The translations under genes and the position numbers were made by a program. Positions 1,412 to 24,553 of a stretch of DNA of 24,634 nt are shown here, piece after piece. The notes beneath the pieces are model-generated. The model was not told the DNA's origin. It saw only the letters and a list, made by a program, of their open reading frames with translations, and did no database searches. The stretch is taken from assembly GCA_021299615.1 (NCBI GenBank), contig JAJTHC010000027.1, positions 1-24,634 on the forward strand, given 5' to 3'. Position 1 is the first letter of the stretch; each line of letters starts with the position of its first letter. This DNA is from Vampirovibrionales bacterium. GTDB lineage: Bacteria > Cyanobacteriota > Vampirovibrionia > Vampirovibrionales > JAJTHC01.

Positions 1412-1561
1412 TATAGACGTCTTTAGAGTTTTCTGTAGAGGTGGCTAGACGAGGAGCCTAGATTATTTTGTGAGGGCGTGTAGTGAGACCTACATAACTG
1501 AACAAAATAATCGTAGCGACAAAGTATAGACCCTGTACAGAAAATTATAAAGACGTCTATA
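1412..1561 (+). mobile_element. 150-bp ERIC/MITE-like palindromic element, copy 1
   Basis: Perfect 14-bp TIR tatagacgtcttta (1412-1425) / taaagacgtctata (1548-1561). Shares the core aggagcctagattattttgt...acaaaataatcgtagcgacaa with the other copies. Confidence 0.88.
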
Positions 1562-1569
1562 GCGAAAAA

Positions 1570-1938
1570 CTACCTACCAACGTTAGAGGCTGTCTTGATA
1601 TTGTTAATCACCGTGCTTAGGCGTTTTGACACCATGTTGAAATACATCAAGTTCTTTTGCATGTCCATCAATTCATTTTGTAGATTGACGGTGCCGTCGC
1701 CTTCGGTACTCAACATATCGGGGAGCTGGCTTGCCCCCATACGGCTGGAAAGGCTGGTGTCCATCACGCTGTTGTCTGCCCCTAAAAAGGTTTCAAACTT
1801 GTAGTGCTTGGGCTTGTATCCTGGCGTGTTGACGTTGGCGATATTGTCCGCCGATGCCTTTTGCATGGTGATAAGGTTACTAAGATTTTGACTTAAAGGA
1901 GCCACTGCTCCGTCGATATTGATGCCTGAAAATTGCAT
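1570..1938 (-). CDS. flgB: Flagellar basal-body rod protein FlgB
   Basis: 122 aa; N-terminal 'ADNIANVNTPGYK' rod motif and C-terminal 'DGTVNLQNELMDMQKN'. Confidence 0.85.
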   Translation of the reverse strand: MQFSGINIDGAVAPLSQNLSNLITMQKASADNIANVNTPGYKPKHYKFETFLGADNSVMDTSLSSRMGASQLPDMLSTEGDGTVNLQNELMDMQKNLMYFNMVSKRLSTVINNIKTASNVGR

Positions 1939-1957
1939 GGTTTAGTCCTTTAAAAGC

Positions 1958-2665
1958 TTACTGTCTAATGCGGATCGCCTGATTAAGCAACTCATCCATG
2001 AGTTTGACGAGTCGCATATTGGTAATAACGCCTGCGTTAATCCGCATGGAATTGTGAACTTCGTCATATAAATCGACATTGGAACGTTCCAAGGCGCCTT
2101 GCATGATTTGAGGTTTTTCTTCCAAAGTCGGCGTGCCTGATTCTTCAGACGGTAAGAGTTGGTTACGGCTGGTTTTCACGAGTCCAGCAGGGTTGTCAAA
2201 CCGTGCTACGCTCAACTGCCCGATAACTTTTTTGTACCCGTCTTCCTTTTTTTTGATGCTCACTTCCCCTGTGGGAGACACCATGAGCTTGCCGAAATCC
2301 TGCGGAATTTGGATGCCTTGCCCCACAATGTCGCCTTCTTGGGTGACCAAAATACGGTCTCGATTGAGGCGAAAGCGACCGTCTTTGGTGTAAGCTTGTG
2401 AACCGTCTGGGCGAGTCACCATGAAGTAGGCGTTGGGATTTTTCAGGGCAAGATCAAACTCGTTTTGCGTGAGTTCTTGCATACCTGCGGTGGTGTCGGT
2501 TTGCAGGGAGCCTTTTAAGGCGTTGGCCCCGTCGAGGTAAAGATCAAAGCGTTCCGCTTTATAGCCTGTTGTTGTGTAGTTTGCCATGTTTTTCACAACG
2601 CTATTAAGGGCGTTATAATGCACCAAGCCGTTATTAGCGGCGGATTGAATCATACCGATGAGCAT
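1958..2665 (-). CDS. Flagellar rod protein, FlgF/FlgG family (divergent)
   Basis: 'KNMANYTTTGYK', 'YFMV...AYTKDGRFRLN...LVTQEG', 'QGALERSNVD' motifs; AGGAGG RBS at 2674-2679. Cannot separate FlgF from FlgG by eye. Confidence 0.88.
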   Translation of the reverse strand: MLIGMIQSAANNGLVHYNALNSVVKNMANYTTTGYKAERFDLYLDGANALKGSLQTDTTAGMQELTQNEFDLALKNPNAYFMVTRPDGSQAYTKDGRFRLNRDRILVTQEGDIVGQGIQIPQDFGKLMVSPTGEVSIKKKEDGYKKVIGQLSVARFDNPAGLVKTSRNQLLPSEESGTPTLEEKPQIMQGALERSNVDLYDEVHNSMRINAGVITNMRLVKLMDELLNQAIRIRQ

Positions 2666-2702
2666 ACGAAAAGCCTCCTACAGTTTTAGGGAACCGTAAG
2701 AA

Positions 2703-2729
2703 GTATCGGTATAAAAATAGTTTTATCTA
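2703..2729 (-). promoter_or_regulatory. Putative sigma28 (FliA)-type promoter
   Basis: Minus strand TAGA-N15-ACCGATAC versus consensus TAAA-N15-GCCGATAA, ~38 nt upstream of a flagellar rod gene. Confidence 0.5.
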
Positions 2730-2755
2730 AAACGGTCGTTTAAACAATGGAGAAA

Positions 2756-2855
2756 AACTAAAGAAACTAAACAAACTAAAGATTGCAGACTAAAGAAACT
2801 AAAGAAACTAAAGAAACTAAAGATTCAAAACTAAAGAAGCTAAATAAACTAAAGA
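2756..2855. repeat. Tandem array of ten 9-bp units (AACTAAAGA) with two 5-bp interruptions
   Basis: Units 3+4+3 separated by ttgca (2783-2787) and ttcaa (2824-2828); the array abuts the symporter stop codon at 2856-2858. Confidence 0.95.
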
Positions 2856-4214
2856 CTAGTTGTTTTCCATTTGAATGACATTTTCCCACTCATCGGAACC
2901 GTTAATGACATCATAATTGAGATCACCTTCTTGAGCGGAAACAAGCGTCGCCACCGTGCAACTGGAAATCACGTTAATGGCGGTTCGCAACATATCTAAA
3001 ATGCGGTCAATCGGCCAAAGTAGAGCGATGCCTCCAAATAAAGGCGTAAAACCTTCGCCAATAGAATTGATGACAATCGCCATGGTGATTAAGCCTGCAC
3101 TCGGCACACCAGGGGTCGCAATAGACGCCAAAATCGAAAAGACCACGATGAGAACTTGAGTCCACAAGGTGAGTTCAAGCCCAAAGGCTTGAGCGAGGAA
3201 TAAAACAGCGATAACTTCAAAAAGGGTCGTTCCTGTTTTGTTGATGCTGGCACCTGTGGGTAAAACAAAACTAGCGACTTGATGGCTCACACCCACACGA
3301 TTTTCGCAACAGGCAATCGACACAGGCAAAGTTGCGGAGCTGGATGCCGTCCCGAAGGAAACCATAATCGCTTCACTAATGGCTCGATAGAATTGTAGGA
3401 AGTTCACTTTCGCCACAGTTTTTAGCAAAATCGGAATTAAAATAAAGGTTTGAATCAACAAGCCCATGACAACCACAAGCGTGTAAGGGGCTAAAATCTG
3501 GAAGATTTGTGGCCCTGCTTTGGCTACTGAAATATAAGTCAAACTAAACACACCAGGAACGGCCAGGATGAACACCCAATCGGTTAGTTTCATGGTGGTG
3601 GCGAAAATGGATTCAAAAAAGGCAATCACAGGACGCCCCGCTTCACCCACTTTCGACAAGGCACTGGCAAAGAAAATCGTAAACAAGACCAACGGCACCA
3701 TTTCGGCTTTTGCCAAGGCTTCCATGGGGTTTTTGGGAATCAAGTTGAGAAAGAGTTCTTTTAAACTGTAAGCATTTGCCGTGATGTGGCTGACATCGAC
3801 AGGGGGGCGGTGCGACATGCTCGCTAAAGCGGATGTTGGATCTTGCATCAGCGTTTTGAGATATTCACCTGGATGCAAAAACTGCCCAAGCCCTAGAGCA
3901 ATCAAGGCGGAAAGCGTCATCATAATGACGAACCAACCCAAGACTCGACCGCCGAAGCGACCTAAGGAGCGACCATCACTCACGCTCGTGACGCCCACAA
4001 CAAGGGAACTGACCACGATCGGCACAACCAGCATACCAATCAAGCGAATGAAGACCTGCCCAATGGTATCAAAAATGGAATAAAATACATGAAACTTCGG
4101 ATCGCTTAACGCCAAACCCAAGCTAGCCCCTGCCACAATGGCAAACAAGATATGCCAATGACGCTTTGTGCCTAAGCCAAGTGCTAATAATGCCAACCAC
4201 AAAAAACGTTTCAT
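2856..4214 (-). CDS. Dicarboxylate/amino acid:cation symporter (DAACS/SDF, GltP-like)
   Basis: Multi-TM protein with 'SFGTASSSATLP', 'VLPTGASINKTGT' and 'IDRILDMLRTAINV' motifs. Start moved to ATG 4214 because of a GGAGAG RBS at 4224-4229 (ORF track starts at 4265). Confidence 0.93.
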   Translation of the reverse strand: MKRFLWLALLALGLGTKRHWHILFAIVAGASLGLALSDPKFHVFYSIFDTIGQVFIRLIGMLVVPIVVSSLVVGVTSVSDGRSLGRFGGRVLGWFVIMMTLSALIALGLGQFLHPGEYLKTLMQDPTSALASMSHRPPVDVSHITANAYSLKELFLNLIPKNPMEALAKAEMVPLVLFTIFFASALSKVGEAGRPVIAFFESIFATTMKLTDWVFILAVPGVFSLTYISVAKAGPQIFQILAPYTLVVVMGLLIQTFILIPILLKTVAKVNFLQFYRAISEAIMVSFGTASSSATLPVSIACCENRVGVSHQVASFVLPTGASINKTGTTLFEVIAVLFLAQAFGLELTLWTQVLIVVFSILASIATPGVPSAGLITMAIVINSIGEGFTPLFGGIALLWPIDRILDMLRTAINVISSCTVATLVSAQEGDLNYDVINGSDEWENVIQMENN

Positions 4215-4326
4215 GCCACAATGCTCTCCATGTAAAATATCAAGTACAGAAGTATAATATGCCAAAGGTATAAATTATACAAGACATTATACAGGGGGTT
4301 ATATATTTAATCACGCTAAAAATTGA

Positions 4327-5223
4327 TTAAATCGAATCTGATGCCTTTGAAGAGCTGGACAAAATGAACAAATCGATGATTTCAGAAAGTTCGTTGGCTT
4401 TGCCTTGATAATGCTTAATATCGGATTCTAGCTTGCGAATCACGGTTTTGTATTCTTCAATCTTTTTAATGTTGCCACGCACGGCTTCCAACATTTCAGA
4501 TTGAGCCGCTTGGGCTTCAGAAAGCACTTCTTCCATGGCAATACCCATGGCTTCCATGGTCAAGCGAATGATTTGAGCCCCTGTTTGTTTGGTTACGCCT
4601 TCAGGCAAGTTATTGACAAGTGTAATTAAGGTACGCACATTATTGGTGTATTCAGTGTCATAAATCGGCTTGGGTTCTGCCAAGTGATTTAAGGACAATT
4701 GAGGTTTACGAGCCACCACTTCCGTATAGCTGGATTGAGCCACTTCAGCATCTAAGGGACTAAAATTAATGGCGGTTGAAATGTTTTCAGCAATACGTTC
4801 ATCGCTAACGTCATTATTGTAAACAGAATCAAGAAGTGCGTCATCTAAGTCAATGTTTTGAATGCCTTCAAGAGAGGGGGCTTCAGAAAGATCGTTATAG
4901 CTGGGGGACATGGGTAAAGCTCCTATAGAATCATCGGAATATGCAGATATTTTTGCTTCATGTGCTTCAAGTAAAACATCATGGGGGACTATTCCACTAA
5001 TTCTAGCATCCTTCTGATTTTTTGTCTCGTTTTTTTCTTCTTCAGCTAAATCGGATATTGATTCACCCGATGTGGCTGAGATGGTAAAATTTGTTTTAGA
5101 TGAATTTAAACGTGATTTAATACGTTCAAGGGTGGGCGATGTGCTTGGCAAATCAAGTAAAGGGCGGTGGGTTTGTTCGGCTTGATTAAGGCGTTCTTTC
5201 AAGCGTTCAAAGCGATACTTCAT
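4327..5223 (-). CDS. Hypothetical protein; acidic/disordered centre and C-terminal coiled coil
   Basis: 298-aa ORF with an AAAGGA RBS; heptad-like C-terminal 90 aa. No family recognised. Confidence 0.8.
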   Translation of the reverse strand: MKYRFERLKERLNQAEQTHRPLLDLPSTSPTLERIKSRLNSSKTNFTISATSGESISDLAEEEKNETKNQKDARISGIVPHDVLLEAHEAKISAYSDDSIGALPMSPSYNDLSEAPSLEGIQNIDLDDALLDSVYNNDVSDERIAENISTAINFSPLDAEVAQSSYTEVVARKPQLSLNHLAEPKPIYDTEYTNNVRTLITLVNNLPEGVTKQTGAQIIRLTMEAMGIAMEEVLSEAQAAQSEMLEAVRGNIKKIEEYKTVIRKLESDIKHYQGKANELSEIIDLFILSSSSKASDSI

Positions 5224-5318
5224 GGCAAGTGTTCCTTTATTTTGAATTAACGCTATTCTAGCCTATTTCAGACGACTCACTTTATTTAACGCCCAATTTT
5301 CCCATAAATGAAGGACGC

Positions 5319-5468
5319 TATAGTGTTTTAAAGAGTTTTCCAGACAGTAGGCTAGACGAGGAGCCTAGATTATTTTGTGAAGAAGTGTAGATAGACCTAC
5401 ATGACTGAACAAAATAATCGTAGCGACAAAGTATAGACACCGTAGGGGAAATTATTTAAAACACTATA
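5319..5468 (+). mobile_element. 150-bp ERIC/MITE-like palindromic element, copy 2
   Basis: Perfect TIR tatagtgttttaaa / tttaaaacactata; 145/150 identical to copy 5 by manual alignment. Confidence 0.9.
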
Positions 5469-5494
5469 TAGAAAGTTCTGCGAAAGGGGAAACC

Positions 5495-5566
5495 CTCATC
5501 CTGAGTGAAACGAAGGATCTCCTAGCCTTTACGGTTTGGGAGATGTTTCGCTATGTTCAACATGAC
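5495..5566. repeat. REP-like palindrome of the 'tcatcctgag-gaa-cgaaggatct...agat--ttcgct--gttcaacatgac' type
   Basis: Imperfect long hairpin (tcatcctgag/ttcaacatga, atctcc/ggagat). Resembles a widespread intergenic palindrome family. Lies 20 nt past the fliI stop and may act as a terminator. Confidence 0.65.
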
Positions 5567-5585
5567 GTCTTGTCTTTTTGTAGCT

Positions 5586-6914
5586 TTATCTAACCGCAAG
5601 TATAGACTTCAACTGTTCCAACGCCTCCTCAAAAGGGACGTTGTCTTGAATGCCTTGGCGTAAAAAATCCATGAGCGGATCATGCAATTTCACCGCACGA
5701 TCCAACGCCGCATTCTGCCCAGCCACATACGCCCCCACCGAAAGCAAGTCTTCATTTTGCTGATACGTCGCCAGCAACCGACGGGCTTCACTCGCCAACG
5801 CCTGATGTTCCGTACCAGCCAAGATCGTGAACAAACGACTGACGGATGCCCCCACATCAATCGAAGGGAAATGGTTGCGTTGAGCCAAATCACGAGACAA
5901 AACGACGTGACCGTCCAACAAACCACGGGTTAAATCGGCAATGGGTTCGTTGAAGTCGTCGCCTTCCACCAAAACCGTGTAAATCCCTGTAATGCTTCCT
6001 TTTTCGCCCATGCCTGTGCGTTCGAGCAATTTCGGCATGAAGGCATACACACTGGGCGGATACCCCCGCGTCGCAGGAGGCTCCCCCGCTGCCAAGCCGA
6101 CTTCTCGTAATGCCATGGCAATACGAGTCACGCTGTCCATCATCAATAGCACTTGTTTGCCTTCATCTCTGAAGTATTCGGCAATGGCAGTTGCCACGAG
6201 TCCAGCTTTTATTTTAACCAAGGCTGGGGCTTCGGCAGTGGCGACCACTAGCACGCTTCGCTTAATGCCTTCTTCACCTAGTGAATGCTGAATAAACTCC
6301 TTGACTTCACGACCCCGTTCGCCAATGAGTGCAATCACGTTGAGATCCGCCTTGGCATTACGAGCCAGCATCCCGAGCGTGGTGCTTTTTCCCACGCCAC
6401 TGCCTGCAAAAACACCGACTCGCTGACCGTAGCCGAGGGTTAAGGTGCTGTCCCACGCTTTTATGCCTGTGGGTAAGATCTCGTCGATTTCTTTGCGGTA
6501 CAAGGGATTCGGCGGTATGGCGGAAGCGTTGTATTCAATGGATGCTTTAGGTAAGCTGGTTTCAGGATTCATGGGATTGCCTAGACCGTCCAAGACATGC
6601 CCAAGCAAGTGAGGTCCCACGCCGACTTTAAAGGGTTCGCCTGTGTTCCAAACTCTCGCTCCGGGATGCAAGGCTTGCATCGAGCCAAGCGGCATCAAAA
6701 GCAAGTGACCGTCTTTAAAGCCCACGACTTCGCTTAGAATGGGATCGATGCGACTGCCTGCTTGTTCAATTTCGCAAATATCACCGAGCTTGGCATTCGG
6801 GCCTTGGGATTCTATCATTAAGCCAATGGTTTTGACGACACGCCCAAAGGCGACATCGTGGTGGCGTTGTCGGTTGGGGATTTCGATGTTTTGCAAGAGG
6901 GCGTCGTTTGTCAT
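5586..6914 (-). CDS. fliI: Flagellar export ATPase FliI
   Basis: Walker A 'AGSGVGKST', 'IALIGERGREV', 'LLMMDSVTR', 'GEPPATRGYPPS', 'LVEGDDFNEPI'. Confidence 0.93.
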   Translation of the reverse strand: MTNDALLQNIEIPNRQRHHDVAFGRVVKTIGLMIESQGPNAKLGDICEIEQAGSRIDPILSEVVGFKDGHLLLMPLGSMQALHPGARVWNTGEPFKVGVGPHLLGHVLDGLGNPMNPETSLPKASIEYNASAIPPNPLYRKEIDEILPTGIKAWDSTLTLGYGQRVGVFAGSGVGKSTTLGMLARNAKADLNVIALIGERGREVKEFIQHSLGEEGIKRSVLVVATAEAPALVKIKAGLVATAIAEYFRDEGKQVLLMMDSVTRIAMALREVGLAAGEPPATRGYPPSVYAFMPKLLERTGMGEKGSITGIYTVLVEGDDFNEPIADLTRGLLDGHVVLSRDLAQRNHFPSIDVGASVSRLFTILAGTEHQALASEARRLLATYQQNEDLLSVGAYVAGQNAALDRAVKLHDPLMDFLRQGIQDNVPFEEALEQLKSILAVR

Positions 6915-6967
6915 GGCGTTTCCTTAACAGTTCTTACTTATTATATAGAATCCTGCCAAAGAAAAGA

Positions 6968-7112
6968 TACAGCCGTTGAAGGAGTTTTGTAAATCTCTTC
7001 TTAGGAGCCTAGACTCGCAGATGTGTGAGATGTACAGAAGTGTACATAAGCACATCGAAAATCGTAGCGACAACGAAGAGACACTATACAGAAAATTATA
7101 AACTTGACTATA
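6968..7112 (+). mobile_element. Divergent copy 3 of the 150-bp element
   Basis: Keeps gagtttt, aggagcctaga, aatcgtagcgacaac and the tacagaaaattataaac...tata end. The central arm has a different sequence but still pairs (gatgtg/cacatc; atgtaca-gaag-tgtacat). Left arm is degenerate. Confidence 0.8.
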
Positions 7113-7142
7113 CCTAATAATATCAAAAAGTTTCATAGATTT

Positions 7143-7994
7143 CTACGGAGCAAAGGTCATCACATAAAAGCGATCGTAGTAATTGCTTTCGGAATCGCTG
7201 TTGATTGCTCCGTGATGCTGGTTTAAAAAGCCCAAATGCTCCGCAAACTCTTGAATACGGAAGTGGGGTTTACCAAATTGTGGCAAGCCTGTATTGCCCG
7301 CATACGCATCCGTCAAGCCGTCTTTGGCAACTCTTACAGAAGCCCCTGTGCTAGGATTCTTCACCGTACCCCAGTCGACATCTACCGCCACAAGCATGTG
7401 GTGATCGCCTGTGCCTTTTTTAATACCAATCAAAACCGTACCAGGAGGCGTTTTTTCAGGGCTTAAATCAGGAGCAAGTATGACCGTCAACTTGCCGAGC
7501 TTCTGCTTCTTGTAAAAATCCAAGAAGCTTTGGGTATGCGTCAAGGCATAGGGGATCTTCGCCGTCGTTTCAGGATACGCCTGCTTTAAGGCAGGCTTTG
7601 TGACATATTCCCAAATGGCGGCGGCACAGCCGTAAGAGCCAAGGTTGTAAGGGGTCTGCAATTTTGATTCGTGAGCTTGGTAAGCCAATTCCGCCATTTT
7701 GCGTTGCACACTTAGTCGAGGCGTGCCTAAGCCTGTCGACGTGCCGACATAAGCCATGGCTTTGCTAGAATGTTCAGAAAAGGCATTTGGCTTGGTTTTG
7801 ACGTTTTCAATAAAGGGAATTTTGATTTGATCATCCAACGCAACGACCGTAGGAGCCAGTTTTTTATGACCTTGTTCGGCTTGTTGAGGCTTATAGAGTT
7901 GCGTATAGGCTAACACACAAAAGCCTGTAAAAAAAATACCAAGTACAAAGCCTATAAAATGTTCCGAAAACCCGTGTTGTTTAGATGTAGCCAT
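7143..7994 (-). CDS. Hypothetical protein with an N-terminal membrane anchor; possible Cys/His (NlpC/P60- or papain-like) hydrolase
   Basis: 283 aa; hydrophobic residues ~13-31; 'GSYGCAAAIWEYV' and 'PGTVLIG...GDHHMLV'. The fold call is inference. Confidence 0.75.
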   Translation of the reverse strand: MATSKQHGFSEHFIGFVLGIFFTGFCVLAYTQLYKPQQAEQGHKKLAPTVVALDDQIKIPFIENVKTKPNAFSEHSSKAMAYVGTSTGLGTPRLSVQRKMAELAYQAHESKLQTPYNLGSYGCAAAIWEYVTKPALKQAYPETTAKIPYALTHTQSFLDFYKKQKLGKLTVILAPDLSPEKTPPGTVLIGIKKGTGDHHMLVAVDVDWGTVKNPSTGASVRVAKDGLTDAYAGNTGLPQFGKPHFRIQEFAEHLGFLNQHHGAINSDSESNYYDRFYVMTFAP

Positions 7995-8103
7995 ACGAAG
8001 GATTCCTAGAATAAAGAGGGGGGGACTTAACTGTTCTATCGATGAAGCACATTATATTCTACAAAAGCCGTTACATTTTTTTACTTACATTTTTTATTTA
8101 CGC

Positions 8104-8574
8104 TTATTTAATGACCTTCTTTTCATGTTTCCCACGATATTCCGCCCATAAATAGTCCAATCCATTAACGATAACCCCTACCCCCATGCCAGGAACGACA
8201 CCAGCGGCAAGAAGGTTATAGCCATAGGCAAGGCGTCCCATAAAAGAGGTAGCGTCTTTGAGGTCTTGCCTAGCATAGCCAATAAAGGCGCTACCCGATG
8301 GATGTTTGTCTTCTTCACTTAACACATGTTTTAAAAGCTGAATAAACTTATGGCGTTCATTTATTCTGAGTCCCACGCCTGCAAGCATAGCTAAAACGGC
8401 GGCTATGGTGCCAGACGTGGTATGAATGTCAAAAGTCGCAAGGGGTGCTTTTCGAGAAGCAAATTTTTGCCGTTGTTCTTCTTCAAAGGCTTGGCGTGTT
8501 TCAATCGCCGTCCGCTGGGTGACGACTTGGCTTAGATTTGTATAGTTAGTTGCGGGTCTAATTTTGTCAAGCAT
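8104..8574 (-). CDS. Hypothetical membrane-associated protein
   Basis: 156-aa ORF with two hydrophobic segments; GGAG just upstream; extended -10 TGcTAGACT at 8608-8616. Confidence 0.75.
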   Translation of the reverse strand: MLDKIRPATNYTNLSQVVTQRTAIETRQAFEEEQRQKFASRKAPLATFDIHTTSGTIAAVLAMLAGVGLRINERHKFIQLLKHVLSEEDKHPSGSAFIGYARQDLKDATSFMGRLAYGYNLLAAGVVPGMGVGVIVNGLDYLWAEYRGKHEKKVIK

Positions 8575-8671
8575 GGAGAAAAGTCTCTTTCAACATAGTT
8601 CATGCCAAGTCTAGCATACACATCTTCATAAAAACAGAAACAGATTTTTTTGTGTTATGCTTTTCTTCTTA

Positions 8672-8810
8672 CATAGCTGAATTTAGATTTTTCTATACAG
8701 TAGGCTAGACTAGGAGCCTAGATTATTTTGTGAGGGCGTGTAGACAGACCTACATAACAGAACAAAAAAATCGTAGCGACAACGAAGACGCCAGACGCTA
8801 TTTAAAACAC
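8672..8810 (+). mobile_element. Copy 4 of the 150-bp element (variant right half)
   Basis: Core conserved; right side reads aacgaagacgccagacgctatttaaaacac, as in copy 6. Confidence 0.85.
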
Positions 8811-8815
8811 GAATG

Positions 8816-8851
8816 ATACCAATTAAACGATTCAATAGCGTCTGGCACTTC
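8816..8851 (-). repeat. Solo inverted right arm of the element
   Basis: Reverse complement gaagtgccagacgctattgaatcgtttaattggtat matches the right end of copy 6 (gaagacgccagacgctatttaatcgtttaattggtat). Confidence 0.8.
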
Positions 8852-8885
8852 CCTCATCCTAGCCTTCTCCCTGTGGGAGAAGGGA
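8851..8885. repeat. REP-like hairpin ccctcatcctagccttctccc-tgt-gggagaaggga
   Basis: Perfect stem ccttctccc/gggagaagg (8863-8883) preceded by ccctcatcct. Resembles the widespread 'ccctcacccnnnccctctccc...gggagaggg' intergenic REP type. Confidence 0.65.
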
Positions 8886-8994
8886 TAAGAATCTTATTGT
8901 CTGTTTTAATAAAAATAGATAGCACAAAGAAGACGGCTTTTGGGTTTTATGCTAGTGACGACATTTATAGAGACATCGGCGTAGGACAATATCT

Positions 8995-9942
8995 GTGATT
9001 TCAACCAATTTGAGCATCCCAAATAGACAACCAATGCCTGTTCCATCGACAGGGCAAAATCAAGCAACGGCACAAAGTCCGCCGAGTGGTATGGGTTCGG
9101 ATGTTAATCAGCTTTTAAATGATACAAACTACCTTACAGCAGGTATGCAAGCCACTGCCCAACAAAACGAGCAGGCTCAAAAAGCCAAAGAACTTCAAGA
9201 GGCTCAAAAGCTCATGCAACAACAATATATTTCTGCTTTGCCTGCTAATCAAGCCAATGCTTCACAACCCAGTGTAACAAGTCCCGCAAATTCGCCCACC
9301 GTGATGCCTCGTAGTGCATCGATGCCTGCGTCTGAAAATGTGAGTACGGTTGACCAAGTTAAAGGCTTTGTAGCGAATGCGTGGAATGAAGCCAGTCAAC
9401 TCATTGCGAATACGGCTCGAAGTGCCACGCAATTTGTGACAGGGGCACCTGCTCAAGCAGCGACGTCTCCACCGCCTGCCATGCCTGCTACGAATCCCAC
9501 AGGGGGAGGAGCTTCAGGCAATGGAGGCTTTATTAATCCTTTACCTTCAGGTAAGTCTACATCAGGATTTGGCATGCGAAATCACCCCGTTCATGGTGGG
9601 CAAAAAATGCACAACGGACAAGATTTAGCAGCTCCTATGGGAACAGCTATTCAAGCCGCCGCCGACGGTGAAGTCACCATTAACGCCTTTGAAGCGAAAG
9701 GCTATGGGAATTGGATTGAAATTAAACATCCCAATGGAAAAAGTACTCGTTATGGTCACATGAAGGACAAGTCTCCTCTTGCCGTGGGTACCAAAGTAAC
9801 ACAAGGGCAAGTTATAGGATCCGTAGGTAGTACAGGCGCTTCAACAGGACCTCACTTGCACTTTGAAGTTCGTAATACAGCAGGCAAGGCTGAAAATCCT
9901 GTCGCCTATTTGCCCGATTTAAACAAATCTAAAAAAGCCTAA
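8995..9942 (+). CDS. M23 family metallopeptidase with a long low-complexity N-terminal region
   Basis: C-terminal domain with HxxxD (HNGQD), 'GYGNWIEIKH...TRYGH' and HxH (STGPHLHFEV). About 175 N-terminal residues are Q/P/S/T/A-rich. GTG start. Confidence 0.92.
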   Translation: MISTNLSIPNRQPMPVPSTGQNQATAQSPPSGMGSDVNQLLNDTNYLTAGMQATAQQNEQAQKAKELQEAQKLMQQQYISALPANQANASQPSVTSPANSPTVMPRSASMPASENVSTVDQVKGFVANAWNEASQLIANTARSATQFVTGAPAQAATSPPPAMPATNPTGGGASGNGGFINPLPSGKSTSGFGMRNHPVHGGQKMHNGQDLAAPMGTAIQAAADGEVTINAFEAKGYGNWIEIKHPNGKSTRYGHMKDKSPLAVGTKVTQGQVIGSVGSTGASTGPHLHFEVRNTAGKAENPVAYLPDLNKSKKA

Positions 9943-10340
9943 TGTCTGATGAACACCCGCTCAATGCCGATGCTTTCGGCGTTGGGGAGCAGATCCAGCT
10001 TTTCGATCCGCACCCACAAGCCCAAGCCCAAAGGATGCGACAACACCACCCCTGCCAGCTCTTCGGCGATTTCTTCCAATAACGGCACGTGTTTGGCTTT
10101 CGACAAAATCTCCAGCGTTTCCACAATCAAGCGATAGTCAAAGCTTAATTGCAAGTTTTCGCCCACACGCCCCATTTCTTTAGACGCCACCCGAACATTA
10201 AAGCGTAAGCGTTGCGTCATGCCGATTTCCTTCGGCAAAATCCCGACCTGAAAGGGTAGAATAAAATTGTCCACCCGAGACAGCATCACGCCGTGATGCA
10301 CTTGAAACAATAATTCTTCTGCGGTATGGGGCAATTTCAT
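9939..10340 (-). CDS. folB: Dihydroneopterin aldolase
   Basis: 'VGILPKE...QRLRFNV', 'SFDYRLIV', 'LLEEIAEELA', 'VRIEKL...AESIGIE'. Overlaps the M23 stop by 4 nt (convergent). Confidence 0.8.
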   Translation of the reverse strand: MKLPHTAEELLFQVHHGVMLSRVDNFILPFQVGILPKEIGMTQRLRFNVRVASKEMGRVGENLQLSFDYRLIVETLEILSKAKHVPLLEEIAEELAGVVLSHPLGLGLWVRIEKLDLLPNAESIGIERVFIRH

Positions 10341-10364
10341 CGCAAGGGGGGTCTCTCTATTTAT

Positions 10365-11648
10365 TCAATCAACATCTAAAGAATGGGTGAGTAACGGCAA
10401 CAAGTCAGGCGGGGTATTGTGCGTGGCTTCTAAATGCTGTAACTGCGTTTGTTGAAACACCTGTAACCACACCGCAAACCATAACCAATTGCGTGCATAG
10501 TAATCGTCGCTTTTAAGGGCGTCTTGCCAATTATAATGCGAAGCATAGGTTTCGTACAAGGGGGAATGATTCAAAATCAGCAAGGGCCAAAAGCCTGCTT
10601 CTCGAGCTTTTGAGCCGAAGTCTTGTACTTTGACGCCGTCTAGGCTCGTGACTTCGGGGAAACCTTGATCTAAACTTTGATTTAATCCCTTCAACAAGGC
10701 TTCGCCCGTGGGATTCTTCCACTTGTACGCCCGACTAATCGCCACATCTTGATACAAACGCCACGGCAATCGACACGCTTCATAGCCGTATTGACTGGTC
10801 ATGCCTTTAAAATCTTTGTCGTCTTGCTTGGCGTAGACCTCGCCTTTTGTACGAGCCAGCCACACCCAATCAGGGGGTAAGCCTCGTTTACTTAACTTAA
10901 AGGAGGCATCCCAGATTTGATAACTACTGCTCACAAGCTTTTCCCACGGATGCGTTTTGTCCACTTGGGCAAAGACTCGGTACAAGGCAGGCGACAAATA
11001 CGACGGATTCACCAAAACCACATCAGGGATCTTGGCTTCAAAGCGATGCCAATTCCCTGGTAAAAGAACAGGTCCTAAGGCGGATTCGGTGACTTCGTGT
11101 TTCCAAATATCATTTAAAATACGCAAGGCTTCTTTTTTATAGTTCGGATCGTTCCACCGCTCGTGAGCCATAAGCAAGGCAAAGGCGATGTCTTGGTCGG
11201 CATCCGCAGCGACGCTGGCATCTAGCACGCACCATATCTTGGTTTTGGGATCTTCACCCCACTTCCACGAAAAGAGCTTATGCTCTTTTTGAACTTGCAG
11301 GTTGTCCCGAGTCCAATGCCAGAGGGTGTCGAAGGAGGCTTTGTCGTTGAGCCAAACGGCTTGTTGGAGGGCATAGCTTTGCCCTTCGCTGGTGGTGGCG
11401 TTATTGTTATAAAAATCTTTGACTCTGCCGTCCGCTTGAATAAAGCGAGCTTTGTAGCTCTTCCAGCTTTGATTCAGCCACGCAGGTGGATTGCCCAAAA
11501 ACGCTTGCGGTGATTTTGTTAAGACACTAAGATGACGAGGGAAAGAATCATGCACAAAAATATAATGCCAACTAAAGAATCCCCATAACAGGAGTATCAG
11601 TAGGAAAGCGACGGCTAGTTTAAATCCATTTTGAAGGGAAACACCCAT
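10365..11648 (-). CDS. Glycoside hydrolase family 8 (BcsZ-like endoglucanase) with N-terminal TM/signal
   Basis: 'TTSEGQSYAL', 'AADADQDIAFALLMA', 'VNPSYLSP', 'GLPPDWV', 'YGYEACRLPW'. Confidence 0.88.
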   Translation of the reverse strand: MGVSLQNGFKLAVAFLLILLLWGFFSWHYIFVHDSFPRHLSVLTKSPQAFLGNPPAWLNQSWKSYKARFIQADGRVKDFYNNNATTSEGQSYALQQAVWLNDKASFDTLWHWTRDNLQVQKEHKLFSWKWGEDPKTKIWCVLDASVAADADQDIAFALLMAHERWNDPNYKKEALRILNDIWKHEVTESALGPVLLPGNWHRFEAKIPDVVLVNPSYLSPALYRVFAQVDKTHPWEKLVSSSYQIWDASFKLSKRGLPPDWVWLARTKGEVYAKQDDKDFKGMTSQYGYEACRLPWRLYQDVAISRAYKWKNPTGEALLKGLNQSLDQGFPEVTSLDGVKVQDFGSKAREAGFWPLLILNHSPLYETYASHYNWQDALKSDDYYARNWLWFAVWLQVFQQTQLQHLEATHNTPPDLLPLLTHSLDVD

Positions 11649-11683
11649 AGAAGCACCTGTATTTTCACGATCATCTTATAGAA

Positions 11684-11833
11684 TATAGTGTTTTAAAGAG
11701 TTTTCCGTACAGTAGGCTAGACGAGGAGCCTAGATTATTTTGTGAAGAAGTGTAGATAGACCTACATGACTGAACAAAATGATCGTAGCGACAAAGTATA
11801 GACACTGTAGGGGAAATTATTTAAAATACTATA
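11684..11833 (+). mobile_element. Copy 5 of the 150-bp element
   Basis: TIR tatagtgttttaaa / tttaaaatactata (one G-T pair); full core. Confidence 0.9.
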
Positions 11834-11876
11834 GCAGGTTTTGTGGACTTGTCTTCACATTTGGCGTGAGATTACA

Positions 11877-12593
11877 CTATTTTATGGACGTACAGTCAAA
11901 GCTTAGGATGTTTTCAAATTGAATAGGATGCAAACGCTCATCTTCTTTTAAAACCTCAATTAAAGCGAGTTCCACTTCTTGACGAATCAATGCGGGACGA
12001 ATGTCACATAAGTTCGTAGGCACGGCATGGGGCAACGCACAAGGATGCACCCCCGTTGGCAGTCCCTGCCACATCGATTCATCCACCGAAACATTGATAG
12101 CAAGCCCGTGGTAGCTTACCCAACGCTTAATGGCAATCCCAACCGAAGCCACTTTCTTAGATTCATCTAACCACAAGCCAGAACCTTGACCGTCTAAAAG
12201 GCTGTCAATCCCGAGATGAGCTAAGGCGTTCTGCCCCCAATTAAGAACACGTTTTAAATGAGCGTGAACGTCGGGCGTTTTGAGCGTGATCAGCGGATAT
12301 AAAATCACTTGTTCGGGATGATGAAACGTTAAATGTCCTCCCCGTTCGATTTCAAAAACAGGAAAGGGATAGTGATGTTCTTTTTCAATTTGAGAAGAAG
12401 CACGTCCTAAGGTGTAACACGCTGGATGCGACGTCAGCAATAACACATCAGGAAACGCTGCGTTGGCTATTTTATCTTGTAGAATCTTTTTTTGAAGTTC
12501 GTGGACGATTTCAAAATCTAAACAAGGTAAGATCCACACAACGGTTTTTAGATCAGGATGCTTAACAAATTTGTTACATAAATTCCTATACAT
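11877..12593 (-). CDS. lipB: Lipoyl(octanoyl) transferase
   Basis: 'LLLTSHPACYTLGR', 'ERGGHLTFHHPEQVILYP', 'KKVASVGI...WVSYHGLAINV', 'PCAL'. Confidence 0.9.
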   Translation of the reverse strand: MYRNLCNKFVKHPDLKTVVWILPCLDFEIVHELQKKILQDKIANAAFPDVLLLTSHPACYTLGRASSQIEKEHHYPFPVFEIERGGHLTFHHPEQVILYPLITLKTPDVHAHLKRVLNWGQNALAHLGIDSLLDGQGSGLWLDESKKVASVGIAIKRWVSYHGLAINVSVDESMWQGLPTGVHPCALPHAVPTNLCDIRPALIRQEVELALIEVLKEDERLHPIQFENILSFDCTSIK

Positions 12594-12685
12594 AGGGGAG
12601 GCTTCTTTGCTTTTTTTAAAACATCCCCATTTGGCAAGGATTTGCCCTGTATATTAGCCTAAAGGTGAATGTTTTGGAAAGGTAC

Positions 12686-12725
12686 TTTACAAACGAAGAG
12701 AAAAGTTGTAGTATGTTAACATTAC
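12686..12725 (+). promoter_or_regulatory. Putative sigma70 promoter with an overlapping palindrome
   Basis: TTTACA (12686-12691)-N17-TAGTAT (12709-12714); palindrome gtATGTTAACATtac at 12711-12725. Confidence 0.45.
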
Positions 12726-12905
12726 ATTAAGAAAACAACATTTCACACGTGTTGAGCTTAAATGTGACATTGCTTTTCTAAAAGCATTTTAATTTTTGGG
12801 AATTTTTCCAGCTCTGCATTCAATTGTTTGAAATCGTCTAAAATAGACGTTCTTTAGACGTTATTGTTATTATATCATCGTTTTGCTTTTAAGGGAAATC
12901 ACACA

Positions 12906-13316
12906 ATGGCCTCTGCAACCCTCGCACTTGAAGAACCTCGTGTCCAGTTACAGTCCACTGAAGAATTAAAGTCTCACCCTGCTCTTGTAGCTGTTTCTGC
13001 TTCGGTAACCGCTCAATCCATTCGAGCGTTAAAGGTGCAATATCCGCATTTGAATCTTGAAAATCTAATCAAGTGGCATGACCATATTATTGATGCCAAC
13101 TTAATCGCTGAAAGCGATGAAGATAGCGTTGGTCCTTACCGCCAGTGGTCACCCTCGGCGGTTTCTTGCTTTGTTCGCAATGCCGATTGTTCAGGGTGTT
13201 ATTATCAAAACTTCTTTTCAGAATCGACGCAAGGTTGTCAAATGAACGATGCCGTCAAGCATTTGTTGGCCAAACTTGGACCGCCTAACAAACGTCATAT
13301 AAATAAATTATCATAA
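12906..13316 (+). CDS. Hypothetical protein with a C-x6-C-x2-C-x12-C motif (putative metal binding)
   Basis: Start moved to ATG 12906 (AAGGGA upstream); motif 'CFVRNADCSGCYYQNFFSESTQGC'. Confidence 0.78.
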   Translation: MASATLALEEPRVQLQSTEELKSHPALVAVSASVTAQSIRALKVQYPHLNLENLIKWHDHIIDANLIAESDEDSVGPYRQWSPSAVSCFVRNADCSGCYYQNFFSESTQGCQMNDAVKHLLAKLGPPNKRHINKLS

Positions 13317-13408
13317 ACGTATACAGATCAATCATTCGGCTTGAGACACAGTAATTCAAGCGTGATGATTTTAAATATCTGTATGCAAACGTTGACCTTT
13401 TTACCCCA

Positions 13409-13444
13409 CCCTGGATGCTATGGCATCTAGGGATTTTCTTTTTT
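13409..13444 (+). terminator. Intrinsic terminator
   Basis: Stem ccctggatgc/gcatctaggg, loop tatg, followed by attttctttttt. Confidence 0.75.
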
Positions 13445-13461
13445 AGAAATTCTGCAAAAGC

Positions 13462-13610
13462 TATAGTGTTTTAAAGAGTTTTCCGTACAATAGGCTAGAC
13501 GAGGAGCCTAGATTATTTTGTGAGGGCGTGTAGACAGACCTACATAATAGAACAAAATAATCGTAGCGACAACGAAGACGCCAGACGCTATTTAATCGTT
13601 TAATTGGTAT
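13462..13610 (+). mobile_element. Copy 6 of the 150-bp element (mismatched arms)
   Basis: Left arm tatagtgttttaaa; right end ...gccagacgctatttaatcgtttaattggtat abuts the stop codon of the 13610-13975 gene. Confidence 0.87.
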
Positions 13611-13975
13611 TAAGACACACGATCACAATGCGTTTCTAAGAAATGCTGGATACGTCCCCAATCTTGCAAGCGTAAGTGAGACGACTGATAGTCCCCCAAA
13701 TGCCAGACGCCCATTTCATCCCGATGATTTAAATACACGTCGCTTGCCAAAGGGGGCAATTCATCTTTGCTTTTTAGACTTCGTAGATTATAATCAAACC
13801 ACGTTTGACCTTCTTCATAAACGTCCCACTCATCTTCCAAATAAATCTCAAAGCCCGAAACGTTCGTATTGAACCAGTTTCGGGCTTGATTAAGACGTGT
13901 ATAAAGATCTTCAGACCCCTTCAGCATTAAGGCTTGTAGTGTTACCACAATCTGTTCCGATGAAGGCGTTTTCAT
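13610..13975 (-). CDS. Hypothetical protein immediately downstream of recA
   Basis: 121-aa ORF starting 6 nt after the recA stop; Trp/acidic-rich; does not look like RecX. Confidence 0.75.
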   Translation of the reverse strand: MKTPSSEQIVVTLQALMLKGSEDLYTRLNQARNWFNTNVSGFEIYLEDEWDVYEEGQTWFDYNLRSLKSKDELPPLASDVYLNHRDEMGVWHLGDYQSSHLRLQDWGRIQHFLETHCDRVS

Positions 13976-13981
13976 GACATT

Positions 13982-15112
13982 CTAACCTAAAGGCAACAAG
14001 TCAGATTCCGCAATTTCTACATCACCGACGCTGGCTCCGCCAATGACATCAACGGCATCTAGGGCGTTACGATCCGCTTGAATGCGATCACGCACCTTTT
14101 GATCAATTTCAGCCATCATAGCAGGGTTTTCGATGATGAAGTCACGTGCTTTTTCACGACCTTGCCCTAAACGGGTTTCGCCGTAACTGAACCATGTGCC
14201 TGATTTTTTGACAATGCCCATTTCAGTGGCAACATCAATCACAGAACCTTCCACACTGATGCCTTTGCCGTACAAAATATCAAATTCAGCAATACGAAAC
14301 GGAGGAGCCACCTTATTTTTGACGATTTTACATTTTACACGGTTGCCATATTCAACGCCATCTTTTTTCAAGATTTCAATACGGCGAATATCCATACGCA
14401 AGGAACAGTAAAACTTCAAGGCATTACCACCTGTTGTGGTTTCGGGATTGCCCATGTAAACGCCGATTTTTTGACGTAACTGGTTAATGAATATAACCGT
14501 GGTGCGTGTTTTTCCGACAACGGCGGTCAATTTACGCAAGGCTTGAGACATCAAACGAGCTTGTAAACCCATGTGAGCATCACCCATATCGCCTTCAATT
14601 TCCGCTTTCGGCACCAACGCTGCTACTGAATCGACAACGACCACATCGATCGCACCAGAACGCACCAACTGCTCGGTGATTTCGAGGGCTTGCTCGCCTG
14701 TATCGGGTTGTGAAATAAGCAATTCATCGATATTAACGCCTAATTTTCGGGCGTAAATAGGATCTAGGGCATGTTCCGCATCCACAAAGGCGGCGATGCC
14801 TCCTTTTTTTTGGGCTTGAGCAATCAAGTTCAAGGTCAACGTGGTTTTTCCGCTAGATTCAGGCCCGTAGATTTCCACGATGCGTCCACGAGGGATACCG
14901 CCCACCCCAAGTGCCAAGTCTAGTGACAAGGCCCCTGTAGGGATGACGTCAATGTTTACATTCGGGCGTTCACCCAATCGCATAATAGAACCTTTACCAA
15001 AATCTTTTTCGATTTTGTCTAAGGTAAACGCCAAGGCTTGTTTGCGTGCTTCATAATCAGAACCGCTTAAATCAACGGCGGCTTCAACAGGGGTGCTATT
15101 TTTTGCCATCAT
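13982..15112 (-). CDS. recA: Recombinase RecA
   Basis: 'GPESSGKTT', '[11 protein letters not shown]', 'VVVDSVAAL', 'IFINQLR', 'GGNALKFY'. Confidence 0.99.
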
Positions 15113-17660: not shown

Positions 17661-18212
17661 ATGCCCTTAGCACTGCTAGACCATGATATAGACGGCGTAT
17701 TACTGCTGGACGGCGTTCGCTTTCAAGACGACCGTGGCTTTTTTGCCGAACTTTACAACCAAGCTCGTATGCCTGCTGAACTCCCGACCTTCGTGCAGGA
17801 CAATGCGTCTCTTTCCCTTGAAAAAGGCGTGTTAAGAGGCTTACATTTTCAAAAGGCTCCCTACGCTCAAGGCAAGTTCATCACCGTTTTGCAAGGGGCT
17901 ATTTGGGATGTTGTCGTTGATTTGCGAAAGGATTCTTCCACCTTTGGCAAGGCTTACGGCGTCGAACTTTCTGCTCAAAACAAGCGGCAGCTCTATGTGC
18001 CTGAAGGTTTTGCTCATGGCTTTGTCACCCTAGAAGCTCAAACGCTGGTGCATTATAAAACCACCGCTCCTTACACGCCGTCGCATGACAGCGGAATTCG
18101 TTGGAACGATACGACGCTTGCCATCGACTGGCATTTAGACGGCAATCGCCCGATTCTTTCCCCCAAAGATGAAACCCTTCCCTTCTTTGATGCCACTGCT
18201 TCCTACTTTTAA
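17661..18212 (+). CDS. rfbC: dTDP-4-dehydrorhamnose 3,5-epimerase
   Basis: 'DDRGFFAE', 'VQDNAS', 'GVLRGLHFQ', '[11 protein letters not shown]', 'PEGFAHGF', 'LSPKD'. Confidence 0.96.
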
Positions 18213-18241
18213 ACCCAAAAACCCTTTTAGAGGACACTCAC

Positions 18242-19318: not shown

Positions 19319-19356
19319 ATCTATTTTATCAAATCAAAGAATAAATACTTTAAATT

Positions 19357-21163: not shown

Positions 21164-21203
21164 TGCGAGTTCTTAAATTGAATTTGACTAAAAGGAAATC
21201 TCC

Positions 21204-22097: not shown

Positions 22098-22109
22098 GCG
22101 TGCTTTTCA

Positions 22110-22118
22110 TGGTATACT
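22110..22118 (+). promoter_or_regulatory. Extended -10 promoter element for lpxI-lpxB
   Basis: TG-g-TATACT, 45 nt upstream of the lpxI ATG. Confidence 0.45.
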
Positions 22119-22163
22119 TATTTAGATATACTCAACTAGTGACGGATATTTCCTAAGAATTTT

Positions 22164-23171
22164 ATGAGCGAAACGCCCTATTCCTACAACTTCAATGAGC
22201 TTCTTGCCGATGTCGAACCTTGGCAGGGGGATCCCTCGCATTTAGCCATCATCGCAGGAGAAGGGACGCTTCCCTTGCAAGCTGTGAAAGATGCCAAGCG
22301 TCAAGGCTACACCGTGCATGTCTTTGTGATTGGCGGAAATTGGCGAGAAATGGATCGCTACAAGTCCTTTGCGGATGTCGTGGAACCCTATCACTTAGGG
22401 CAATTACGACGCATGATGAACATCTTTAGGGGGCATCGTATTAAATATGTGTGCTTTGCAGGCAAGGTCAACAAATGGTTGCTGTTTACGCAACTGAACT
22501 TGGATAGCCTTTCTTTACGCCTGCTTCAAAAAATACCTCGTAAAAATGACGATGCCGTCATGCACTATATTATCGAAGGCTTGGCGTACTTGGGTATGGA
22601 AACCTTGCCTCAAGTGAAGTTTATGCAAGACTTGTTTCAGTCTGAAGGGATTTTAGCCGAAGGGCATCCATTGAGCGATGACGATTGGCTAGGGATTTGC
22701 TTTGGCTTTGACACCGCAAAAGCCATGGCGGCTTTAGATGTCGGGCAGACGGTGGTCGTGAATGAGACCATGGTGATTGCCATTGAAGCCATTGAAGGCA
22801 CCGATGAATGCTTGAAGCGAGCAGGCAAGCTTCAACGCAAGCAAGGGGGCATCGTGGCTAAAGTCGCCAAACCCTTTCAGGACGATCGCTTTGATGTGCC
22901 TGCTGTGGGCTTACGCACCTTGAAAACCATGCGAGACAACGGCTTAAACATTTTGGTTACAGAAGCAGGGTCGACCTTGTTTCTAGATTCATTCGATCGC
23001 ATGAAAGCCTATGCCGAAACGCATGGCATGACCTTACTTTCCGTCACCGAAGCAGGGCTTCAACCGTGGAGAGAACGCTTGGCTCAACGTCAAACCAAGA
23101 CAAACGCAACCCTTTCCCCTGCCTCATTAGAAGACGCGACATGTGAAAAAGGATCGACTTATGTCCACTGA
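22164..23171 (+). CDS. lpxI: UDP-2,3-diacylglucosamine pyrophosphatase LpxI (DUF1009)
   Basis: 'LAIIAGEGTLP', 'FAGKV.K', 'LDVGQTVVV', 'IEAIEGTD', 'KVAKPFQDDRFDVPAVG', 'EAGSTL'; adjacent to lpxB. Confidence 0.9.
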   Translation: MSETPYSYNFNELLADVEPWQGDPSHLAIIAGEGTLPLQAVKDAKRQGYTVHVFVIGGNWREMDRYKSFADVVEPYHLGQLRRMMNIFRGHRIKYVCFAGKVNKWLLFTQLNLDSLSLRLLQKIPRKNDDAVMHYIIEGLAYLGMETLPQVKFMQDLFQSEGILAEGHPLSDDDWLGICFGFDTAKAMAALDVGQTVVVNETMVIAIEAIEGTDECLKRAGKLQRKQGGIVAKVAKPFQDDRFDVPAVGLRTLKTMRDNGLNILVTEAGSTLFLDSFDRMKAYAETHGMTLLSVTEAGLQPWRERLAQRQTKTNATLSPASLEDATCEKGSTYVH

Positions 23172-24375
23172 TTCCCTTGAAACCATTGAACATTTGCTGA
23201 TTTGCACAGGCGATCCGTCGGCGGCTCATCATGCAGCGGACTTGGTGAAGGCGATTTTGGCTCGTCACCCTCAACTACGCATCACTGCCGTCGGCAATGA
23301 TGAATTGCAAGATGCAGGCGCCACCTTGCTGGCTCACCATGACGAGATCGGCATGGGGGGTTGGGGCATTGCGGCGGCACTTGCTGGCATTTGGGGGCAT
23401 TGGCAGTTGGCTCAAAAAATCAGACACTTTGTTTCAGAAGAACGAGTCGATCGTGTTCTGTTTATGGACTACAGTGGCTTTCATTTAAAATTAGCGAGAA
23501 TCCTTGTACGATTTTGTGACTTGCGTTATTACATTCCGCCTCAATTGTGGGCAAGTCGTCCGCAACGCATGAAAAGCATTGAAGCCTTTATCACCAAGGT
23601 TTACACGATTTTTCCCTTTGAAAATGACTTGTATCAGGATGCAGGCATCCCGCATTTATTTGTGGGGCATCCGTTGACACGCAGTTTGCCTGCACCCGTG
23701 AGCAAACATGAGTTTTGTGTGCGTCACTATTTTGAGGTCAGCCATCCTATTTTGGGACTATTCCCTGGTTCTCGAGTGGGGGAAGTCCAACGAATGTTGC
23801 CTGTCTTTGCACAAGCCTTAGCCAAAGTACACGAAGCCTTGGACGATAAAGGGCAAAGCTTGCAAATTGTGATGGCACAAGCCCCTAATTTATCCGATGC
23901 CTTCATCGAAAAAGCGGTGAAAAAAGCCTTTAAGCCGTTTCCTCAACTCAAGTTGACGATTTTAAAGGATGCGAATCATGCCATTTTATCGGCAAGCGAT
24001 GTGGTTTTGGGGGCGTCTGGCACGACAAGTTTAGAAGCCGCCTTGTACGAAACGCCCATGGTGATTGCTTATAAAGTCGATTGGATTAGTGCCATGGTGG
24101 CGAAACAGATCATTATGGTGCCGTTTATTGGTTTGCCTAATCTTTTGGTGCCGTTTGAACATGCCCCGATCTTACCTGAACGTCTGCAAGGCGGATGCAC
24201 CCCAACCCTACTCGCAAAAGACGTGCTAGACTTTTTGAATCCGCAGTCACCCGCATCTGAAAAAGCGAGAGAGGGCTTGGCGTATGTCAAGGCATCCTTA
24301 GGGGAAGGGGCGTCGTTAGATGAGTTTGTGGATGATCTCGTTTCGTTGGGCCAATATAGTTTTTTAAAAAGTTAA
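23161..24375 (+). CDS. lpxB: Lipid-A-disaccharide synthase
   Basis: 'TGDPSA', 'DYSGFH', 'YYIPPQLWASRP', 'FVGHPL', 'LFPGSR.GE', 'ASGTTSLEAAL..PMVIAY', 'GLPNLL'. ATG 23161 preferred over GTG 23143. Confidence 0.92.
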   Translation: MSTDSLETIEHLLICTGDPSAAHHAADLVKAILARHPQLRITAVGNDELQDAGATLLAHHDEIGMGGWGIAAALAGIWGHWQLAQKIRHFVSEERVDRVLFMDYSGFHLKLARILVRFCDLRYYIPPQLWASRPQRMKSIEAFITKVYTIFPFENDLYQDAGIPHLFVGHPLTRSLPAPVSKHEFCVRHYFEVSHPILGLFPGSRVGEVQRMLPVFAQALAKVHEALDDKGQSLQIVMAQAPNLSDAFIEKAVKKAFKPFPQLKLTILKDANHAILSASDVVLGASGTTSLEAALYETPMVIAYKVDWISAMVAKQIIMVPFIGLPNLLVPFEHAPILPERLQGGCTPTLLAKDVLDFLNPQSPASEKAREGLAYVKASLGEGASLDEFVDDLVSLGQYSFLKS

Positions 24376-24397
24376 ACAGTGGATTTTTCCCCATCTC

Positions 24398-24553
24398 ATA
24401 CCATTTAAACGGTTAAATAATTTCCCCTACAGTGTCTATACTTTGTCGCTACGATTATTTTGTTCAGTCATGTAGGTCTATCTACACTTCTTCACAAAAT
24501 AATCTAGGCTCCTCGTCTAGCCTACTGTACAGAAAACTCTAAACTTAGCGATA
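24398..24553 (-). mobile_element. Copy 7 of the 150-bp element, inverted
   Basis: Reverse complement of the full core, near-identical to copies 2 and 5 internally, with different outer arms. Confidence 0.9.

Follow-up and report, generated by a model that had tools for sequence, protein, structure and literature searches.

A high-copy family of small intergenic palindromes in Vampirovibrionales, very probably moved by IS630/Tc1-mariner-type transposases

Known repeat systems and the Vampirovibrionales repeats

Correia elements (CREE/NEMIS) of Neisseria are about 100-155 bp long, have TATAG-type tips, duplicate a TA on insertion and occur in hundreds of intergenic copies. They combine alternative end types in various ways, contain outward promoter-like sequences and form hairpin RNA once transcribed. 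To our knowledge, no cognate transposase of Correia elements has been identified. Seven repeats of about 150 bp with a comparable layout are present in the window, the whole stretch of 24,634 nt analysed here, which is contig JAJTHC010000027.1 (C219) of the assembly GCA_021299615.1 of an uncultured Vampirovibrionales bacterium. This genome, G000, is represented by a 1.72-Mb assembly of 281 contigs with a completeness of 82% and a G+C content of 45.7%. The seven repeats are very probably copies of a non-coding family of miniature transposable elements with inverted repeats (MITEs) that is moved by IS630/Tc1-mariner-type transposases. The family is new; the kind of element is known, and its cut-and-paste transposition at TA is textbook. 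No published description of MITEs in Vampirovibrionales was found.

The likeness to Correia elements is one of layout, with no relation in sequence expected, and the phylum differs. Unlike Correia elements as we know them, the Vampirovibrionales family has matching IS630 elements. ISY100 of Synechocystis PCC 6803 inserts almost exclusively into TA, which is duplicated, and 30 bp of each end are enough for its transposition (PMC2170065). The Vampirovibrionales repeats share with this type the insertion into TA, the duplication of TA and, at the termini, inverted repeats of about 24-30 bp with a match in an IS630-family element. The partner insertion sequences (ISs) have about 0.93-1.08 kb, in comparison to 947 bp for ISY100 (PMC2170065). 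Like MITEs derived from IS630/Tc1-mariner elements, the repeats are gene-free, intergenic and multi-copy. They differ from them by an interior unrelated to the IS elements examined, by one core that occurs with the ends of at least three lineages, and by a very high density, which amounts to 3.3% of a genome of about 2 Mb.

Copies, terminal repeats and target sites

All seven positions named in the first-pass annotation of the window were recovered by a repeat search and a seven-way alignment. The copies and a solo arm are listed with their central-arm types (A, B, C) and arm classes (i to iii), both of which are described below.

1412-1561, plus strand: copy 1, 150 bp when the TA of each tip is counted, the element itself spanning 1414-1559; A-like central arm
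5319-5468, plus strand: copy 2, 150 bp; B-type central arm, class i arms, tip TATAGTGTTTT
6968-7112, plus strand: copy 3, 145 bp; C-type central arm, decayed left tip (TACAG), without the TAGGCT half-hairpin
8672 to about 8810, plus strand: copy 4; class ii left arm whose tip is mutated (CATAG), A-type centre, shortened class iii-type right arm
8816-8846, plus strand: solo class iii arm, starting ATACCAATTAAACG, in opposite orientation to the right arm of copy 6
11684-11833, plus strand: copy 5, 150 bp; B-type centre, class i arms
13462-13610, plus strand: copy 6, a chimera with a class i left arm and a class iii right arm around an A-type centre
24398-24553, minus strand: copy 7, an inverted chimera whose B-type centre stands between a class ii-like arm, TATCGCTAAG, at 24553 and a class iii arm at 24398

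In the repeat search, the inverted copy 7 was 86-97% complementary to the copies at 1412, 5319, 8672, 11684 and 13462, and the alignment added the divergent copy 3. The two junction motifs AGGAGCCTAGA and ATCGTAGCGACAA are invariant in 7/7 copies, as had been noticed on first reading, and all copies are located between long open reading frames (ORFs), in agreement with the intergenic placement described then. Copies 1, 2 and 5 are exactly 150 bp long with the tips TATAG...CTATA. Terminal repeats of 14 bp had been ascribed to these three copies: they are perfect in copies 1 and 2, and 13/14 positions agree in copy 5. The arms of copy 1 pair over 30 nt. The C-type central arm of copy 3 has a different helix sequence at an unchanged motif-to-motif spacing. 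The solo arm is 97% complementary to 13580-13610 and has 111 blastn matches in the genome.

Single-strand folds of copies 1 and 2 have z-scores of -7.9 to -11.3 in comparison to shuffled sequences on both strands; copy 3 has a z-score of about -3. Of the originally predicted fold, the minimum-energy folds of both strands contain the outer stem, central arm and apical hairpin. The TAGGCT/AGCCTA hairpin of that prediction is possible, yet it does not appear in the minimum-energy fold of the RNA and is missing from copy 3.

An IS630 transposase with matching terminal repeats, which the first-pass annotation had proposed to look for, is present in relatives. Their complete IS630-family elements have 933-942 bp with two overlapping reading frames, all ending TATAG...CTATA, and the longer frame matches NCBIfam NF033545 above the cut-off. 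The terminal repeat of the element in genome G004 is identical to the right end of copy 5 in 19/19 positions and to the right end of copy 2 in 18/19. The right end of the IS in G016 and the class i right arm of copy 5 agree in 20/20 positions. A second IS630 lineage, in G011, is about 1083 bp long and encodes a protein of about 40% identity; its perfect 25-bp terminal repeat starts with TACCAATT and ends with AATAGCGT. This repeat matches the class iii arms (8816-8846 and the right arms of copies 6 and 7) in 20/25 positions without gaps. In G000, IS630-family DDE_3 fragments are located at two contig ends (C199 and C12) and have the right end CTTAGCTATA, which is like class ii arms; the class ii-like arm of copy 7 is similar to this end. 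The window itself has no IS630 DDE_3 match, and 0/20 scanned ORFs match a transposase family, as the annotation had stated for transposases.

The tips of the copies in G000 form three main classes and a small fourth one, class iv. Class i has the tip TATAGT[G/A]TTTT (about 38 left and 37 right tips), class ii TATAGC..A.T (about 52 left and 41 right) and class iii TATACCA.TT (about 17 left and 14 right). Among the copies with both tips classified, 73/101 have the same class at each end, and about a quarter are mismatched. The right arm of copy 5 also contains an outward-facing promoter-like sequence at 11799-11827 on the plus strand (TAGACA-17-TAAAAT, 10/12, by consensus match only). In class i copies the site is part of the right arm, and it recalls the promoters made by Correia ends.

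The comparison of filled and empty orthologous sites, also proposed at the outset, revealed a TA duplication in three clean cases. The site of copy 1 is filled in G000 as TA-element-TA and empty with a single TA in G005 and G007. The alignment reads AATCAATATA-CCGAT in G005 and G007 versus AATCAATA-TA-[TAG...CTA]-TA-GCGAA in G000. In case L034, a copy of G007, the filled site tatttTA[TAG...CTA]TAcgtc contrasts with the empty site tattTAcgtc on contig C176 of G000. On contig C155 of G000, one copy is nested in another copy at the TA of the otherwise invariant CTACATAACAG, and TA is present on both sides of the insert. For the class iii case L037, the comparison was nearly clean. Polymorphic sites and TA duplication were observed, and TA duplication at the compared sites is the signature of IS630/Tc1-mariner transposition.

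The earlier estimate of hundreds of copies per genome agrees with the results of a copy-built profile, which found 421 distinct places in G000, 234 of them near full length. They cover 56.5 kb or 3.3% of the assembly, with about one place per 4 kb. The real copy number is higher than 421, since 69/562 contig ends are located no more than 60 nt from a copy. Across the genome, the two motifs have about 275 and 253 occurrences. They form 199 two-motif units with the motifs 46-52 nt apart (exactly 50 nt in 176 units), and 193/199 units are intergenic; the modal total length is 150 bp. The reversed control pattern has 0 occurrences, which places the 199 units far beyond chance.

Nine congeners contain 151, 83, 49, 35, 26, 25, 23, 9 and 2 units of the two-motif pattern, and two other genera of the same family 53 and 2. 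The pattern was absent (0 units) from five further genera of the family, from two other families of the order and from 300 genomes sampled phylum-wide. Among the genomes searched, the repeats are confined to three genera of one family. A pattern scan with one genome per species identified at least eight assemblies with the element, seven named Vampirovibrionales and one labelled Gammaproteobacteria. The latter 'Gammaproteobacteria bacterium' metagenome-assembled genome (MAG; JBEISK01 contigs; L010, L023, L029) carries the family and appears to be a relative of the same genus; its public label is probably wrong. Phages were considered as vectors. Seven pattern matches in IMG/VR were GC-rich coding sequences with unrelated flanks, and the candidate was rejected as chance.

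Matching IS ends, TA duplication and about 421 places in the genome bear out the first inference from the window, a high-copy MITE with TA ends of the IS630/Tc1 type. In the proposed mechanism, copies without a gene would be mobilised in trans by DDE transposases of the IS630/Tc1-mariner family (ISY100-like). The transposase would recognise terminal inverted repeats of about 25-30 bp, excise the element and insert it at a TA, which becomes duplicated. Each element consists of a conserved asymmetric core with GGAGCCTAG, then a hairpin arm of about 50 nt and then CGTAGCGAC, flanked by exchangeable arms. The arm classes, at least three in number, match the terminal repeats of three different IS630 lineages in this bacterial family. 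Copies may recombine via the shared core into elements with chimeric arms. Mismatched arms and reassorting centre types fit such a recombination between copies through shared motifs. The matches of the arm classes to IS630 terminal repeats explain the pairing of the outer stem as a terminal-repeat requirement and not as a requirement of an RNA structure. Judged by these end matches, the particular transposases of the relatives are the likely agents of movement.

Several observations weigh against an IS630-moved MITE. No intact cognate transposase is assembled in G000. The transposase remains are C-terminal DDE_3 pieces at contig ends, in an assembly that is 82% complete and breaks at repeats, and tblastn detected no N-terminal transposase parts in G000. 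The IS630 transposase fragment at G000:C199:2338-2677 stops at a contig edge reading TATAG; the break may represent a MITE inside the transposase gene or an assembly break caused by the repeat. G011 has 42 IS630 copies and zero MITEs, and G004 has the best-matching IS and only 2 MITE units, so that the number of MITEs does not simply track the presence of the transposase. The empty-site comparisons of L063 and L068 were messy and obscured by deletions. The core is unlike the subterminal sequence of the IS elements tested, and it is unusual for a MITE that the interior is more conserved across subfamilies than the ends.

The conserved core and other explanations

The core is the most conserved part of the element across subfamilies: conservation is 90% or more in the motifs and in the apical hairpin, and the arms and the central helix vary in sequence. 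GGAGC and GCGAC never vary and could pair with tandem G.A/A.G. At least three versions of the central arm (A, B and C) are present, which differ in helix sequence and share the same motif-to-motif length. The apical hairpin has a C-G/G-C swap (161 versus 153). B-type centres are combined with class i arms, A-type centres with classes ii and i, and C-type centres with classes ii and iii. RNAalifold gave no useful consensus fold on the mixed-subfamily alignment, since A and B are not in register with type C. The joining of one asymmetric core to terminal repeats from at least three IS630 lineages is the unusual feature of the family.

Local alignments with shuffled controls detected no similarity between the core and the subterminal 200-nt regions of the IS elements tested. 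No z-score was above 3, and a derivation of the core from these elements was rejected. The search for an autonomous element carrying the core in G000 yielded only left-half/right-half pairs, which were nested MITEs. Among 234 copies, private mutations in the motifs (5.0-7.5 per column) were as frequent as elsewhere (about 5), and rare alleles were not depleted in the motifs. Individual inserted copies are thus without visible constraint. The invariance of the motifs would result from still-amplifying lineages that retain the core, and not from a host constraint on each copy or a service of each copy to the host.

The core may be a module with its own function that is carried by the MITE. This is rather unlikely, and it would add a layer to the MITE explanation without replacing it. 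The module could be a DNA structure or a protein-binding site that aids the meeting of the ends by cruciform extrusion or bending, or it could serve the host as terminator or insulator. Such a function is suggested by motifs and an apical hairpin that are retained in all subfamilies while arms and central helix change, by central-arm versions of equal length with compensatory changes as in the C-G/G-C swap, by the possible tandem G.A/A.G pairing of GGAGC and GCGAC, and by the joining of the same core to ends of three IS630 lineages. The canonical strand also has a terminator-like hairpin followed by a T-rich run. The orientation bias that a terminator would give is lacking, however, and the private mutations are no rarer in the motifs. 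Imperfect DNA palindromes can become complementary by template switching during replication, so that compensatory changes arise without selection. Moreover, ISY100 requires only 30 bp per end (PMC2170065).

A more specific form of this proposal is a little less probable still. The core, with GGAGC/GCGAC, the possible tandem G.A, a 3x3 loop and the length-conserved arm, would serve as a functional chassis and increase transposition or persistence, perhaps by hairpin or cruciform extrusion, which brings the ends of the 150-bp element together, or by recruiting a protein. If true, the chassis would explain the repeated re-fitting of the core with terminal repeats of at least three IS630 lineages.

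The first-pass annotation had offered a structured RNA as an alternative to a MITE. The repeats would encode a cis-regulatory element, a small RNA or a ribozyme, with the conserved junctions as functional core. This is very improbable. It is in agreement with the strong single-strand folds (z to -11), with helices that covary around invariant junctions, with an invariant G.T pair at the base of the apical hairpin that pairs on the canonical strand only (299/331), and with the presence of the repeat sequence in two metatranscriptome runs. Being a palindrome, however, the element folds equally well on both strands. G.T and A.C oppositions are similarly frequent in the outer stem (672 versus 557), so that neither strand is favoured as a folded single strand. 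The Rfam check of the annotation, for which cmscan was run over the entire window with E up to 1, matched none of the copies; two sub-threshold chance hits were both located off the repeats. An orientation that tracks transcription was seen for 5/5 informative copies in the window and failed genome-wide: in co-directional spacers, 27 copies have the same and 35 the opposite orientation (18/20 and 9/15 by subfamily), which is random with respect to neighbouring genes. In the metatranscriptomes (Logan contigs), the contigs are strandless and the depth of the repeat relative to genes is not above that of DNA runs. The motifs of individual copies also show no constraint, as they carry as many private mutations as other columns.

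ERIC/IRU sequences of Enterobacteriaceae are likewise imperfect palindromes of similar size in multiple intergenic copies, and an echo of ERIC had been suspected on first reading. The taxa differ and sequence similarity is undetectable. Copy 2 had no blastn match (word size 11, E up to 1) in 5,426 complete E. coli genomes, and ERIC was rejected by sequence. We know of no demonstrated IS630-type terminal repeats or TA duplication for ERIC.

REPIN-like REP doublets, moved by a RAYT (IS200-type Y1) transposase on single-stranded hairpins, can practically be dismissed: the repeats resemble them as long hairpin-forming palindromes with hundreds of intergenic copies and with GTAG/CTAC tetranucleotides in the apical hairpin and motif B, but their ends match IS630 terminal repeats, the 82% complete G000 has no RAYT gene and no PF01797 (Y1_Tnp) match, and TA is duplicated on insertion, which IS200/RAYT-type elements do not do.

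Neighbouring elements, synteny and significance

Genes of the window include FlgB/C-like, FliI, RecA, MlaE, LpxB and LpxI genes, consistent with a flagellated diderm. Beside the MITE copies, the spacers contain other small repeats, one of them next to copy 2.

5469-5585, plus strand: second, unrelated repeat of about 115 nt, starting TAGAAAGTTCTGCG, abutting copy 2 at TA

In the alignment, this repeat is missing, along with copy 2, from the orthologous spacer of G005. It has about 15 further places in the genome with 70-84% identity (blastn), and in C8 one of them splits a MITE arm. The repeat probably represents a further MITE family with insertion at TA. A G+C-rich palindrome (CCCCCCTCC...GGAGGGGG) is located at G000:C120:4400-4541, where the relatives L020 and L076 have the MITE. 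Different small elements seem to insert repeatedly into the same spacers. A tandem array at 2755-2868 consists of 9-bp AAACTAAAG-type units in 14-bp steps and lies just beyond the low-coordinate end of a symporter ORF (2856-4265, minus strand).

Positions 1-14200 of the window were compared with G005 and G007. Synteny breaks at the MITE spacers of G000 (around copies 2, 3, 5 and 6) and also at the 9-bp tandem array near 2750-2860. These breaks fit a repeat-mediated rearrangement, though breakpoints fall in spacers anyway. Non-orthologous copies of different species are up to 99% identical, in comparison to 81-91% for the surrounding orthologous genes. Copies 5 and 2 of the window (11684-11833 and 5319-5468) share 97-99% identity with non-orthologous copies on G005:C18 and G007:C54. 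This high identity suggests either that the copies spread recently among co-occurring species or that master copies change slowly. An insertion shared at an orthologous site has 95.5% identity versus 86-91% for its flanks, and another orthologous site has different subfamilies in two species.

The presence of copies at 69/562 contig ends explains the poor assembly of MAGs in this genus, and with a model of the family, annotators can mask roughly 3% of the genomes concerned. In this predatory sister group of the cyanobacteria, which has received little study, the MITEs point to places where recombination and recent transposition are likely. What a Tc1/mariner-type MITE requires in addition to its terminal repeats can be studied in the shared core with its swapped ends, a useful natural experiment.

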